Assembly (NCBI GenBank): GCA_041652335.1 | Contig: JBAZHL010000001.1 | Coordinates: 1-46,851 of the forward strand | DNA from: Patescibacteria group bacterium | GTDB taxonomy: Bacteria; Patescibacteriota; Kazan-3B-28; UBA10110 | DNA length: 46,851 bases | Direction: 5' to 3' | Part shown: positions 36,867 to 46,851 of the stretch, in pieces | Position numbering within the stretch: the stretch's first letter is position 1 | How the letters are laid out: every line of letters begins with the position of its first letter | Position numbers and translations under genes: made by a program | Notes under the pieces: generated by a model | Told to the model about the DNA's origin: nothing | The model's database searches: none | Seen by the model: only the letters and a program-made list of their open reading frames with translations

Positions 36867-38081
36867 ATGGAACTCACCCCAAAACAACAAGCCTTAGAGC
36901 TGATCAATAAATCCAAGCATATTCTGATCGCCCCCGGTCGAGCCGACGGCGATTCGATTGGTAGTGGGTTGGCACTCTATTTAGTCCTTTCTCGACTTGG
37001 CAAACAGGCCAGTTTAGTGGTGCTCGATCCCCTGCCGCCCAAGTTTAACTTTCTGCCCAATTTAGACGAGGTACAACATGAGTTTAACGGCCTGCGCGAT
37101 TTTGTAATTAGCTTGGATTGTACTTCGGCCTCCGCCGATAAGTTGGCCTACAACTTTCAGGACGAAAAATTGAACATTGTTATCACGCCTAAAGCTGGCG
37201 TCTTTAAATCGACCGATGTCAGTTTCTCCGAAGGCAATTTTCAGTACGATTGCTTGATCACTTTAGACGCTGCCGATTTAGAACAAGTTGGCTCGCTTTA
37301 TACGGACAACCCCAAGATATTTCAAAATGTACCGATCATTAACATCGATCATCATGCCAGCAACGACTACTACGGCGCGGTCAATTTAGTTGACCTAACC
37401 GCCACCTCCACGGCCGAGTTATTGGTCGGTTTGATCGAGGCGTTGGGCCCATCTTTGATCGATGCGGACGTAGCCACGGCTTTGTTGACCGGTATCATTA
37501 ACGACACCGGTAGCTTCCAGCATGCCAACACCACCCCAAAGTCCTTAACTATTGCCGCCCAGATGGTAGGTTTTGGCGCTCGCCATCAGGAGATTATCCA
37601 ATACCTATTCAAGACCAAAGCCTTTACGACCTTAAAGCTCTGGGGGCGAATCCTGACTAACGTCCAGCACGACCCCATTAGCCGACTGGTCTGGAGCTCG
37701 GCCTCCTTGTCCGATATCACCGAGACCGAGGCTACTGGGGAGCAGATCAGTGGGATTATTGACGAACTAATGACGAGCGTCCCAGAAGCTGATATAGTAG
37801 TTCTGTTGTCCGAGCGGGATCCTCAGGTGGTCTCGGGAAGCATTAGGACTAAAAAGGGAGTTGACGCTGCCGATATCGCCAAAATGTTTGGCGGTGGCGG
37901 TCACCATGGGGCCGCCGGCTTTAAGCTGTTAGATAGCGGTATTCCAGAGGCGGCAGCTACTGTGGTGGCCAAGATCAAGGAGTATCAAGCCAAGCGGCTA
38001 TCTGGGGCTACCCAGATCCCGGAAGAATCAGGAAATAATGGCTTGGAGCCTGCGATTCCCGACCTTGCCAAAAATGAGTAA
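36867..38081 (+). CDS. nrnA: DHH/DHHA1 phosphoesterase (NrnA-like oligoribonuclease/pAp phosphatase)
   Basis: GRADGDSIGSGLAL, INIDHHASN (DHH), INDTGSF, and FGGGGHHGAAGF (DHHA1 GGGH). Confidence 0.85.
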   Translation: MELTPKQQALELINKSKHILIAPGRADGDSIGSGLALYLVLSRLGKQASLVVLDPLPPKFNFLPNLDEVQHEFNGLRDFVISLDCTSASADKLAYNFQDEKLNIVITPKAGVFKSTDVSFSEGNFQYDCLITLDAADLEQVGSLYTDNPKIFQNVPIINIDHHASNDYYGAVNLVDLTATSTAELLVGLIEALGPSLIDADVATALLTGIINDTGSFQHANTTPKSLTIAAQMVGFGARHQEIIQYLFKTKAFTTLKLWGRILTNVQHDPISRLVWSSASLSDITETEATGEQISGIIDELMTSVPEADIVVLLSERDPQVVSGSIRTKKGVDAADIAKMFGGGGHHGAAGFKLLDSGIPEAAATVVAKIKEYQAKRLSGATQIPEESGNNGLEPAIPDLAKNE

Positions 38082-43480: not shown

Positions 43481-45736
43481 TTACAAGAAAGCGTTTAGCC
43501 GGGATATGTCGATTAGAGCGCGGTGTTTAAGAGTAAACATCTCCTCTTGCAACCGGGAAAATTCCCGCACTCGTTCAATTAATTTTACGTCACTACCAGC
43601 CAAGATCGGATCGCTAAGCTGCTCACCTAATATTCTTAAGCGAGTGCCAATCTTGCCGTACTCTCCGATAATCCCCTCAAGATCGGAGTAAGCGGTGGTC
43701 ACCATCTCTGGGGGTTCCTCGCCGTTACCGGCCAAGCCCCCCAGCCTTTGGTTTACCAAATCTTTTAGTGTACCCGCCTCGGGATTAGAGCCAGTGGGCC
43801 AATACTGTTCAACAAAATCAATCTGTACTTTTAACACCTCCTGTTCCTGACCAATATCTCCCCACAGTTCGACCCCTCCTCCACTTAGATAGTACTCAAG
43901 TCGCAAATCTTGCACCTCTCTCCATACCCCGATCGGTTGGCGAGTGCTACCATCCGATTCGTACAGTCGAGTGTCGGCCAGATCGATACCATGCCGCCGA
44001 CTATAGCGCTTAGCTATTTTATACAATCCCTTTGCCCACCAAAACAGTGACCAAGCTCTGGCTAATCTCCCCTCGCGAGAGATCAGTAGGTTGATGGGGA
44101 GTTTGTCTAACTGCTCCATAACCGAATCGATAGCTCCCGGCGTCGATTCGCGAAGCTTCGCTATCGCTGAATCCAGGATCTGCAAAAGTTTGTTGTTAGT
44201 TGTAGTCTCTGTTTCCTTATCCTCTTCGCGGACGATGTCAGCCGAGTGTCGGCTTTGGCCAAAAGCGTATTCCATGTTTTTGCGAACCTCCCCCAAGCGG
44301 ATCGGTGTCATCTGCCAGTCAACCAGTAATGGCAATTGGCGATCGGACAAAATCCTCCAGGCATTGCCCAAGGCGTGCTGGGCAGTCTGTTTTAATGATG
44401 CGACATAGGCAGCATCCTCCATCTTAGAGTCCGTAAACTGTTCGGATAGAAAGATGGCCTCACCTAAGTAGCGCCGCTCAATCCGATCAATCCGCTCATG
44501 GGCGGTTAACAGATTTTCCTCCCAAGTGGTTTTAATGCGCATCTCCAGTTCTTTTTCCGAGACAGATTCGCCGGTTGTCTGAGCCTCTGTCCTGATTCTG
44601 GCCTCGATCATCTTGAGATCCAACTCGAGGCCACTGAGTACTCCTTTGTATGACCCATCGGCGCTACCGTATAGCTCCATCTTAAACATCTGTTCCCACG
44701 AAGAGTTGTACGCCGCATTTAGCCGACGATTAGCGGAGTTAGCTCGTGGTCGGAAGGTTTCCATTAATAAACGTAGGCGATCAGCCGGATGCTCGCGGTA
44801 TTTCTCATACGATCTGGATTCGGGGTCTATCCCCAGCATTTTTTTTCGCAGCTCGTCTACGTTCCTTTCGATCTTTTCTGAGGCTTCCTGGAGCTGTTTT
44901 TTATCTTTGCTATCCGGCATCTCCGCGACGGACGATTGCTGATCTTTTTTAAATCCCTTTGGCCCAATAACTAACACCGGGTTGGGCTCAGCCTTCCCTT
45001 TTCCCTTTTTGGTCTGGGGGGATAACAGTGTATCGAGCTCAGCTAAGGTTAGCTGTTTTATCCCTGGCTTTGTTGGATCAGGTTGGAGGCGCGGATCTCG
45101 CATTAAAATCACCTGCTTACCAGTGGCCGGATCCTTGGCCATATGGATCAATACCCCGTGTTTTAACGGATGTCCTTGGCTGTCTAATCCCCCGTCCACT
45201 AATATGATTAATGCCCGACCCTGTTTAATATGTTCGTGTGCCGATATTGGATCTGTAGTGGTTTCGGCAAAATATCCATTCTCTTTGATCAATTGCCCTG
45301 CCTGATTTAATTTAATACCGCTTTTTTCATCAAAACCATGACGCTCGGCCATTTTTAGCAAAGTGTCTTCGAGTAACTTCCGGCCATCGGGATTTTCTAA
45401 TCCCTTTTCCGCAAAAACATATTGACGAGCGTTCATCCAACAAGCGACCACACAGGCAAAGGGGTGGGATTGTTTGTGAGTCTCGCCAAACTGTTCCGCT
45501 AAAGTCGCCCTAGCTGAACCTGACTCTGGTGTGGGCGCCGGGGTGGCTATTCTCCTCTCCGCTCGCAAGGGTTGGGTGGTAGCGGCCTCGGCCGCCGTTG
45601 CCTGCGATGGTAATCCTAAACTTTTAGTCAGAAACTCTTCCGGATCGTCCCCGCGATGGGGCGGCGTCGGATCGGTTGGGGTTGGAGGTATGCCCAGCTC
45701 CGTCAAAAAATCATTGGGGTCTAACGGACCACTCAT
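43481..45736 (-). CDS. Uncharacterised 751-aa protein with N-proximal papain-like (C39-like) cysteine peptidase signature and a long helical C-terminal region
   Basis: Pro-rich first ~80 aa. Then QSHPFACVVACWMN (Gln89, 6 residues before Cys95), LKHGVLIHMA (His193) and VILMRDP (Asp214), in the order and spacing of papain-fold/C39-like peptidases (nt ~45077-45484). The remaining ~530 aa are charged and helical with no motif I recognise. I see no signal peptide or TM segment. Confidence 0.55.
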   Translation of the reverse strand: MSGPLDPNDFLTELGIPPTPTDPTPPHRGDDPEEFLTKSLGLPSQATAAEAATTQPLRAERRIATPAPTPESGSARATLAEQFGETHKQSHPFACVVACWMNARQYVFAEKGLENPDGRKLLEDTLLKMAERHGFDEKSGIKLNQAGQLIKENGYFAETTTDPISAHEHIKQGRALIILVDGGLDSQGHPLKHGVLIHMAKDPATGKQVILMRDPRLQPDPTKPGIKQLTLAELDTLLSPQTKKGKGKAEPNPVLVIGPKGFKKDQQSSVAEMPDSKDKKQLQEASEKIERNVDELRKKMLGIDPESRSYEKYREHPADRLRLLMETFRPRANSANRRLNAAYNSSWEQMFKMELYGSADGSYKGVLSGLELDLKMIEARIRTEAQTTGESVSEKELEMRIKTTWEENLLTAHERIDRIERRYLGEAIFLSEQFTDSKMEDAAYVASLKQTAQHALGNAWRILSDRQLPLLVDWQMTPIRLGEVRKNMEYAFGQSRHSADIVREEDKETETTTNNKLLQILDSAIAKLRESTPGAIDSVMEQLDKLPINLLISREGRLARAWSLFWWAKGLYKIAKRYSRRHGIDLADTRLYESDGSTRQPIGVWREVQDLRLEYYLSGGGVELWGDIGQEQEVLKVQIDFVEQYWPTGSNPEAGTLKDLVNQRLGGLAGNGEEPPEMVTTAYSDLEGIIGEYGKIGTRLRILGEQLSDPILAGSDVKLIERVREFSRLQEEMFTLKHRALIDISRLNAFL

Positions 45737-46785
45737 TTGTTTTCCTCCTTATTCCAGACATACATACTGTTACGCAGGATTTCTCCACCGCGTTTTCTCT
45801 GCATCTCCCTAAATTGCTTTAGTAACCAGGGGTTGCCGTGGGCAAAGGCGGTAACGGAAGATAGGCTGCCAGCCGCGTCTAATCCCATAATAATCCTGCC
45901 GGTCACCCCGTTGACCATCAATATGTCAGTAGGATCTATGCCCATTATTTTTAATGGATCAGGCTCCGTGCTGCCTCTTTCCGGCTGCCACTTTCTCTTA
46001 TCAGTAAACACTTTATCCCCTCCTGGGGTGGGTCTAATATCGCCAGCTTTCTCCCATTCCTCGATCTTGGCCTGTGCCTTAGCGACATCCAGCCGCAAGC
46101 GTTTTAAAACCTTTTCCGGGTGCTTCATCCCCACCACTTGCTCCAATTGTTTTAGGGTAAACTGCCTTTTGTAATTACTTCCAGTCAGCATCATCAAACG
46201 CATAAATTCTTCCCGATACCCGCTCCCCAATTTGTAGTTTCCCCACCAGTCCTTTGGATTTATTTCCCCTCGCTCATCCGTCACTCGGGCATTCATTAAG
46301 CCGAAAGCATTAGTCAGCGTCTGATTAATGTCAAACTGTTCCCCAGAGTTACGATCGGGGTAATAATTCTTGTTATCTTGGGCGTCTACAAAATCCACTA
46401 AGTGTTTAATCCGTACGCCGCGGTTGCGCTCGCTTTTTATTACACTAAGATAGGCATCGGTTGGCATTTGAGCTAATCTATCTTCTGGAACCTCAGGCGC
46501 GGGCAAGGCTCCTAATTGTATCAGCCAGTCGTACACTTTTTTGGCGCTGCAACCAGTGTAGGGCGAAGACTGTCGCCCGTGGTGCTCAAAGTACATTCGG
46601 CCAAAAACTATTGTCTTGTCGTCTGGAGTAATCACCGTAGTCAAATGCGAGGCCAGACTGTCTCGGTGTGGATCCCGATATTTTTCTATTTCATCGTCCT
46701 CAAACAGTGGGGTCCAGACGTCGGTCTCAGACGATGCGGATATATCCATTATTATCCCGATCCCCAAGTGGCTGGGGTCAGCCAT
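45733..46785 (-). CDS. Uncharacterised protein, upstream partner of the peptidase-like gene (possibly 5'-truncated by the window edge)
   Basis: 350-codon ORF from the first in-window ATG. Its reading frame stays open all the way to 46851, so the true N-terminus may lie outside the window. Its stop overlaps the downstream start (ATGA at 45733-45736). I recognise no motif. Confidence 0.5.
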   Translation of the reverse strand: MADPSHLGIGIIMDISASSETDVWTPLFEDDEIEKYRDPHRDSLASHLTTVITPDDKTIVFGRMYFEHHGRQSSPYTGCSAKKVYDWLIQLGALPAPEVPEDRLAQMPTDAYLSVIKSERNRGVRIKHLVDFVDAQDNKNYYPDRNSGEQFDINQTLTNAFGLMNARVTDERGEINPKDWWGNYKLGSGYREEFMRLMMLTGSNYKRQFTLKQLEQVVGMKHPEKVLKRLRLDVAKAQAKIEEWEKAGDIRPTPGGDKVFTDKRKWQPERGSTEPDPLKIMGIDPTDILMVNGVTGRIIMGLDAAGSLSSVTAFAHGNPWLLKQFREMQRKRGGEILRNSMYVWNKEENK

Positions 46786-46851
46786 AAAGTCCTTAAATTC
46801 CTTATGTGAAACATAATGGACGGGGGTATCTTTGTTGATTACTCCGGCCTG

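Follow-up and report, generated by a model that had tools for sequence, protein, structure and literature searches.

An overlapping gene pair of Kazan-type Patescibacteria that probably encodes two halves of one divergent hydrolase

At one end of contig JBAZHL010000001.1 of a Patescibacteria group bacterium, two minus-strand open reading frames (ORFs) overlap by four nucleotides, and the question that this locus raises is what the two encoded proteins are and what such a pair might do. To our knowledge, most of the proteins behind the episymbiotic lifestyle of the candidate phyla radiation (CPR)/Patescibacteria are unknown, and no Kazan-type organism has been cultured. The stretch of DNA analysed here (the window; 46,851 nucleotides) is the entire contig C1 of genome G000, which comprises 712 kb in 60 contigs and is 91% complete. 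A sequence-only reading of the window had described the pair as a two-gene module made of an unknown protein and a 751-amino-acid (aa) protein with a papain/C39-like signature. On balance, we consider it probable that the two ORFs are the halves of a lineage-specific, soluble, multi-domain hydrolase of Kazan-type CPR bacteria with a role in biological conflict.

The ATGA stop/start overlap of the two ORFs, which the earlier description had noted, was read directly from the sequence, and a strong Shine-Dalgarno sequence, AAGGAGG, lies 7 nt 5′ of the second ATG. Contigs from three independent metagenome runs (one from groundwater and two from landfill) show 0 differences across the junction, so the split is real and was not produced by an assembly error or a frameshift. 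No promoter-like site was found on the minus strand between the two genes, and the stop/start overlap implies that the two halves are co-transcribed.

The reading frame of the upstream ORF, hereafter the partner, is open up to the window edge, its 5′ end being cut by the end of the contig. As had been suspected, the module continues past the window: by comparison with relatives, approximately 290 N-terminal residues of the window partner are missing, and a second, fused paralog stands at the start of another contig of the same genome, C24. In Logan, the contigs of four metagenome runs end before or at the window end and give no extension past it, and neither the missing N-terminus of the partner nor the tail of the fused paralog was found on any other contig of the metagenome-assembled genome. 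The public gene call for the window partner (P0007, 338 aa, 45733–46749) begins at an internal ATG. Because the ortholog alignment of the partner extends to the contig edge, past the P0007 start, we regard P0007 as an artefactually short fragment.

The history of the pair was reconstructed from its relatives. An exhaustive phmmer search of 1.84 billion representative sequences returned five proteins, and a word-indexed search of 5.8e9 proteins returned only the query itself for the 751-aa protein and three proteins for the partner profile. In G002, a genome of the same genus, the split pair is kept as neighbouring genes, and the same ATGA overlap connects a 711-aa ortholog (43–44% identity) to a partner that is complete at 659 aa. 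Elsewhere, what had been described as a two-gene module is one protein, encoded by a fused single ORF of 1088 aa in G001 (same genus), 1023 aa in P0004 and 1339 aa in P0005. The second copy in G000 is of this fused kind: on the minus strand at the start of C24 (L010:2-1780), directly adjoining ftsK, it encodes at least 593 aa that comprise the domain of the partner and the peptidase domain, the C-terminus being truncated where the contig begins. C1 and C24 are probably neighbours with an assembly gap between them, the split and the fused copies standing in tandem.

The two split copies group together with 100/100 support in a maximum-likelihood tree of the partner domain, and their clade is nested among the fused forms, which indicates a single fission event in the inter-domain linker. 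These comparisons show that the ancestral form was one protein of 1,000–1,300 aa, in which a variable helical repeat at the N-terminus was followed by a DHH/DHHA1-like domain and, beyond a linker, by a papain-fold peptidase domain and a long tail, and that one gene fission within the linker, in the lineage of the window copy and its G002 ortholog, made the ATGA overlap. This clean fusion/fission relation argues that the two genes work together. Other members of the family have only some of these parts: G025 encodes the partner and the tail without the peptidase, and G005, G013, G020 and G024 encode the peptidase and the tail without the partner.

According to its structural model, the N-terminal domain of the 751-aa protein is a papain fold with a Cys-His-Asp catalytic signature. 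The AlphaFold2 model of residues 69–270, built on an alignment of only seven sequences, reached a predicted local distance difference test score (pLDDT) of 86.4 and a predicted template modelling score (pTM) of 0.84; in it, a helix has Cys95 at its N-terminus, and His193 and Asp214 fall within the strands that follow or at their ends. When the model was compared with the PDB using Foldseek, the top 21 matches were all papain-fold clan-CA cysteine peptidases. They include staphopains A, B and C (E=1e-4), the C39 domains of PCAT1 and ComA (template modelling score, TM-score, up to 0.66) and the isopeptidase PeiR, as well as papain-like toxins of contact-dependent inhibition (CDI) and toxin-immunity systems. 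Against viral models, the matches were peptidase domains of phage lysins and morphogenesis proteins.

Conservation agrees with the model. The residues of the Gln-Cys…His…Asp signature that had been proposed from sequence are present at their positions, and all four are invariant in eight aligned domain sequences (21–39% identity to the window copy). Two more members of the same order likewise retain Cys, His and Asp, which are thus present in 10 of the 10 copies examined, so that no loss of the triad Cys95/His193/Asp214 was seen among homologs. In the G024 member (L073, a 658-aa ORF adjoining ftsK), the oxyanion Gln is replaced by Met (GETEPMSEDKDC), with Cys, His and Asp retained.

Profile libraries gave little for this domain. 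The window 751-aa protein has no Pfam match at E ≤ 1, C39 and C39_2 included, and the best full-length scores among homologs fall under the Pfam gathering cut-offs (18.3 vs 24 bits for C39_2 and 13.7 vs 22 bits for C39). When only the domains were scanned, the best E-values for C39_2 and C39 were 4.8e-4 and 1.3e-3, each family matching three of the seven members and never the window copy; a PDB sequence profile search with the peptidase domain gave nothing significant. A profile of the domain itself matches 7 of 401 sampled Patescibacteria genomes, all in the order of the window. A classical C39 bacteriocin-processing peptidase was considered and rejected, given the sub-threshold scores, the lack of an ATP-binding cassette (ABC) transporter and a likeness to C39 that is no closer than that to other clan-CA families.

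The partner, which the sequence-only reading had left as an unknown protein, can be placed with DHH/DHHA1-like phosphoesterases from its model and from Foldseek and hhalign comparisons; it is very probably a highly divergent phosphoesterase of this fold. A template-free AlphaFold2 model of the complete domain of the G002 ortholog, based on an alignment of eight sequences, reached a pLDDT of 84.6 and a pTM of 0.86, and its top 13 Foldseek matches in the PDB were all DHH/DHHA1 proteins. The matches are led by PggH (E=9.7e-4, probability 1.0, TM-score 0.46) and include PPX1, NrnA, PF0399, DhhP and Cdc45, followed by family II pyrophosphatases, with TM-scores of 0.36–0.46. Partner alignments contain a DHH-like series of motifs in the order SDLDG, D-I-S, F-[DE]-H-H-G and DFVDAxDNKxY. 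SDLDG is kept in every copy that covers this region, and D(IS), [DE]HH and FVxAxDNKxY are invariant in all rows. In the model, the putative motifs I–III lie at strand ends and the putative motif IV within a helix. Using a wider alignment, hhalign matched the partner to NrnA-type DHH proteins in a near-global, co-linear manner (Prob 5%, P=0.008), setting [DE]HH exactly on motif III and the aspartate of D-I-S on motif II.

Several observations speak against this placement. Pfam DHH (PF01368) and DHHA1 do not match the partner proteins, and a first hhalign comparison, of a narrow alignment with canonical DHH, gave Prob ≤ 1.5% (100% for the positive control). GGxxxRN stands in place of the GGGH of DHHA1, and hhalign does not pair the two; in addition, the D-H-H of the fused copies is E-H-H in the split ones. 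The assignment thus rests on an eight-sequence model and modest Foldseek E-values, and it is mainly fold-based because only the wider alignment gave a weak co-linear sequence signal; a PDB sequence profile search with the partner gave nothing significant.

Searched with PF01368, each genome, including that of every relative examined, yields two canonical DHH genes and no others, and the divergent DHH-like partner is therefore an addition to these enzymes and not a replacement. The canonical DHH proteins of G000 are encoded at 36924–37496 of the window and at C25:1717-2145 (NrnA-like, ~312 and ~404–436 aa). A phylum-wide profile search revealed distant relatives of the partner in other Patescibacteria families, none of them recognised by Pfam, which are either stand-alone proteins of ~340 aa or domains within charged proteins of 850–1,570 aa. 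Loci of this DHH-like family are L058:766-1782 (G108), L054:1012-2055 (G115), L053, L055, L056 and L057, and a 292-aa relative (L060, G371) has weak matches to ChrB_C (E=3.5e-5) and DHH (E=0.0045). A helical module of ~100 aa, with WFxxQLGE at its end, lies before the DHH-like domain, in one copy in G001 and G025, two copies in G002 and three in P0005 (loci L008:9498-11474 in G002 and L009:7084-10347 in G001, and P0005).

Translational coupling of the two genes, together with the papain-like toxin/immunity pair 9l5u and the CdiA-CT toxin 8ssm among the Foldseek neighbours of the peptidase, could be taken to indicate a toxin-immunity or toxin-antitoxin pair in which a papain-like toxin is neutralised by the upstream protein. 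We give this next to no credence: with at least 372 aa in the window and 659 aa in G002, the partner is a large protein, keeps the full set of putative catalytic residues and is covalently fused to the peptidase in most relatives, and some members have no peptidase (G025) or no partner (G005, G013, G020 and G024). As a candidate, a toxin-antitoxin pair was rejected in view of the fused forms, the large enzyme-like partner and the lack of a delivery domain or a small immunity gene.

The remaining parts of the 751-aa protein are the former inter-domain linker, in which a short motif is duplicated, as it is in G002, and the tail, which can be aligned among family members only via a few landmarks (Table 1). 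The tail had been described as free of known motifs, and residues 263–751 indeed match no family in Pfam, PHROG, NCBIfam, PADLOC or the PDB sequences; their composition (51% A/E/L/K/R/Q/M and 9.6% G+P) fits what may be a helical protein. The statement that neither protein has a signal peptide or a transmembrane segment is borne out: the maximum 19-residue Kyte-Doolittle means are 0.73 and 1.22, and no signal-like N-terminus was found.

Table 1 Features of the gene pair, with positions in the window
Feature	Coordinates	Strand	Basis
751-aa ORF: Pro-rich linker, predicted papain-fold Cys peptidase domain and 489-aa, presumably helical tail	43481..45736	-	ORF list and G002 ortholog
Partner ORF, C-terminal 372 aa; probable divergent DHH/DHHA1-like phosphoesterase	45733..46851	-	ORF and G002 ortholog model
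Fission junction	45733..45750	-	Read from sequence
Junction: ATGA stop/start overlap	45733-45736	-	Read from sequence
Junction: Shine-Dalgarno AAGGAGG	45744-45750	-	Read from sequence
Predicted papain-fold peptidase domain (clan CA, C39/staphopain-like), residues ~75-262	44951..45514	-	AlphaFold2 model, Foldseek, conservation
Catalytic codon Gln89	45470-45472	-	Read from sequence
Catalytic codon Cys95	45452-45454	-	Read from sequence
Catalytic codon His193	45158-45160	-	Read from sequence
Catalytic codon Asp214	45095-45097	-	Read from sequence
Partner motif D(IS)	46738-46749	-	Alignment
Partner motif RD	46657-46668	-	Alignment
Partner motif F-E-H-H-G	46576-46590	-	Alignment
Partner motif DFVDAQDNKNYY	46360-46395	-	Alignment
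Partner motif TNAFGL	46297-46314	-	Alignment
Partner motif LMMLTG	46180-46197	-	Alignment
Partner motif GGxxxRNxxY	45760-45789	-	Alignment
Pro-rich linker, residues 1-70; corresponds to the inter-domain linker of fused relatives	45527..45736	-	Alignments
Duplicated short linker motif, DPNDFLTELGIPP	45683-45721	-	Read from sequence
Duplicated short linker motif, DPEEFLTKSLGLPS	45605-45646	-	Read from sequence
Tail, residues 263-751, charged, presumably helical	43484..44950	-	Family alignment of tails
Tail landmark RLxxhhxx[FY]RP	44747-44779	-	Family alignment
Tail landmark ExRYLxE	44459-44482	-	Family alignment
Tail landmark Wx..L..YY	43886-43927	-	Family alignment
Tail landmark FxxLQ	43541-43564	-	Family alignment

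All copies that can be placed have rnj (RNase J) on one side, with which they are convergent, and ftsK on the other, from which they diverge. The genes pnp and that of an NrnA-type DHH protein lie upstream of the locus and recA downstream, and the flanks rnj, ftsK, yajQ and recA are found in all loci. The content of this rnj-ftsK slot is variable: G006 and G010 have an empty slot, most genomes in the same family and order lack the gene, and elsewhere the slot holds other large charged proteins or small signal-peptide-bearing proteins. By hmmsearch and hhalign, the occupants G003, G004, G014, G017, G005_729 and G025_620 have no tail match, although in these comparisons even the tail of G013, a bona fide member, is scored no differently from shuffled sequences.

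The pair also changes much faster than its surroundings. Between G000 and G002, RNase J, FtsK, RecA and YajQ are 87–95% identical, with nonsynonymous divergence (dN) of 0.03–0.09, whereas the gene pair is 44–49% identical, with dN of 0.43–0.54. The dN of the pair is thus about ten times that of its flanks; synonymous divergence (dS) is saturated or undefined for all genes, and only dN can be compared.

The fixed position between rnj and ftsK, flanked further by pnp and the gene of an NrnA-type DHH protein on one side and by recA on the other, might be expected of a lineage-specific housekeeping factor, acting either as a nanoRNase-like/protease scaffold in RNA decay with RNase J and PNPase or on DNA with FtsK and RecA. 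The closest DHH structural neighbours do act on short RNA and dinucleotides, and removal of protein-nucleic-acid adducts, for example, would need both a protease and a phosphodiesterase. Yet the pair is not co-oriented with either neighbour, its dN is some ten times theirs, and the slot is empty in two of the genomes. Since most relatives lack the gene and two canonical DHH proteins are already encoded in each genome, we regard a housekeeping role as very unlikely.

Instead, the fast dN, the gain and loss of domains, the duplication and the variable slot point to a substrate that may come from a conflict partner (a host cell, a competitor or a phage) and not from housekeeping metabolism. As we envisage it, the two polypeptides would reassemble. 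The DHH-like half, with its acidic and His-His putative metal-site residues, would hydrolyse a phosphoester, probably in a nucleotide or a short oligonucleotide; this substrate is suggested because the closest structural neighbours, PggH, NrnA and DhhP, act on dinucleotides and nanoRNA. The papain-like half, with its Gln, Cys, His and Asp, would cleave a peptide or isopeptide bond, and the tail may provide oligomerisation or target recognition.

Certain points tell against the conflict role. It is drawn from rate and locus variability only, and positive selection is indistinguishable here from relaxed constraint or from old paralogy with differential loss, because dS is saturated and no dN/dS is available. 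In addition, neither protein shows an export signal or a known defence domain, and no immunity gene or mobile context was found.

Two features of the slot occupants were recorded alongside these results. An acidic, Pro/Asn-rich N-terminus, often containing E-N-(N)-P, is present in 12 of 16 occupants, compared with 3.7% of the 544 ORFs of G000. It is also found on occupants without detectable mutual homology, and two more members fit by eye (the set comprises L008, L009, L011, L016, L062-L068, L073 and L074). This enrichment is suggestive, and it is not independent because several occupants are homologs of one another and the criterion was chosen post hoc. Second, signal-peptide-bearing proteins of ~300–350 aa recur in the slot beside the large protein (L009:5876-6820 in G001, L065:5887-6981 in G013, L067:7909-8910 in G016, L068:2095-2988 in G017 and L021:11166-12065). 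Homology among them was shown only between G016 and G017 (E=1e-18), the others being grouped by position, size and N-terminus.

One form that the conflict could take is that of an exported host-interaction or antagonistic effector with targets in the host or in a competitor cell, the rnj-ftsK slot being a contingency locus and delivery being non-classical, perhaps marked by the E-N-(N)-P N-terminus. The fast evolution of the pair, the variable slot, the frequency of the acidic N-terminus among its occupants, the recurrence of signal-peptide-bearing proteins in it, and the structural neighbourhood of papain-like CDI and toxin-immunity toxins and phage lysin peptidase domains would all agree with such an effector. 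We nevertheless think it unlikely, since the proteins have no signal peptide, transmembrane segment or known secretion-associated domain and no immunity gene accompanies them. Moreover, the N-terminal criterion is post hoc and its enrichment may reflect common descent of homologous occupants, the N-terminus of the 751-aa protein is a former internal linker, and that of the window partner is missing. A more specific version, in which the occupants share the acidic E-N-(N)-P sequence as a tag for an undescribed export route and the pair is a two-activity effector that combines, for example, degradation of a nucleotide signal or short RNA with cleavage of a host protein, is somewhat less likely again.

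Alternatively, the pair could belong to anti-phage defence as a cytoplasmic sensor-effector, in which the tail senses infection and the protease and phosphoesterase act as abortive-infection effectors or signal-degrading enzymes. A nuclease or phosphoesterase, a protease and a long helical region resemble the make-up of many defence proteins. The predicted cytoplasmic location fits this proposal, as do the domain shuffling and the duplication seen in the family, the presence or absence of the gene in close relatives and its position in a hotspot between conserved genes. The searches do not: no family member has a PADLOC match, no defence or mobile-element genes were seen nearby, the GC content equals that of the genome (0.494 for the module vs 0.481), and the peptidase subfamily is limited to one order and not horizontally spread. 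Against PADLOC-DB 2.0, the window proteins have no match at E ≤ 1, and their homologs and most other slot occupants have none at E ≤ 0.1; two other occupants have weak matches of coiled-coil type, to ZorA (E=0.0016) and Cas11 (E=0.031). We consider a defence role quite improbable on these grounds, and the data do not discriminate between an effector that is exported and a defence protein that acts inside the cell.

Nor do described families accommodate the pair. Searches of both window proteins against Pfam, PHROG, NCBIfam and PADLOC gave nothing usable, with PHROG matches only at E ≥ 0.6, and a full-text literature search combining DHH, papain-like and Patescibacteria returned nothing relevant. 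Mapping of both proteins to a described family, such as a phage structural module, had been named as an outcome that would refute the earlier description, and it was not observed. A phage structural module was itself considered and rejected, given the PHROG E-values, the housekeeping flanks in all loci and a likeness to lysins at the fold level only. No immunity gene adjoins the pair; downstream of the 751-aa ORF lies the convergent rnj.

A further detail of the earlier description, a lower density of CGATCG in the module, did not hold up, since the module has 3 sites where the density in the rest of the window predicts 3.6 (P(≤3)=0.51). In the window as a whole, 50 CGATCG sites were observed, four times the 12.5 ± 3.2 obtained when the sequence is shuffled with its dinucleotides preserved. 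The genome as a whole has 0.73 sites per kb, and the palindrome is strongly over-represented, not avoided.

Thus, the best explanation of the locus, in our judgement, remains a soluble hydrolase of this lineage whose two halves are now encoded by overlapping genes. Both catalytic folds are already known; the novelty lies in the unannotated families and the way they are combined with a long tail, in a pair related by fission and fusion, and in the variability of the rnj-ftsK slot. None of the libraries searched describes this architecture, in which two recognisable hydrolase folds come together, and the Patescibacteria-wide DHH-like family, both stand-alone and embedded, is invisible to current profile libraries. 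Rate and locus variability mark the pair as a candidate for a function in conflict between organisms. If this is true, the rnj-ftsK slot would be a handy genomic marker for host-interaction or defence genes in the lineage; if it is wrong, the pair is still useful in showing how a gene can be split at a domain linker while its halves stay translationally coupled.

Among known systems, the peptidase shares the papain fold with C39 and C39-like peptidases (PF03412 and PF13529; ComA-PEP, PCAT1) and with staphopains (C47), with Foldseek E-values of 1e-4 to 1e-2. A Gln-x5-Cys spacing and the order Cys, His, Asp are typical of C39 and papain, and the window protein has both. Unlike C39 proper, no family member or neighbouring gene has an ABC transporter domain, no gene for a double-glycine leader substrate lies near the window peptidase, and the peptidase is part of a soluble protein, between the DHH-like domain and the long tail; structurally, it is as near to staphopains, PeiR and papain-like toxins as to C39. 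The likeness to papain-like toxins (CdiA-CT, 8ssm, and the toxin/immunity pair 9l5u; E=6e-4 to 6e-3 in the PDB) and to peptidase domains of phage lysins (E=3e-6 to 1e-3 in the viral library) is at the fold level, and the pair differs from both in having no delivery domain, signal peptide, immunity gene or phage genes nearby and in keeping its chromosomal place between rnj and ftsK. The partner, as modelled, resembles DHH/DHHA1 phosphodiesterases (PggH, 7d62; NrnA, 5izo; DhhP, 9r7o; PPX1, 2qb6) in its predicted two-lobed fold and in a co-linear series of putative motifs: DxD (SDLDG), D (D-I-S), [DE]HH and the acidic, motif IV-like DFVDAxDN. Unlike the stand-alone DHH enzymes, it carries a helical repeat at its N-terminus and is linked, by fusion or by translational coupling, to a cysteine peptidase and a long tail.

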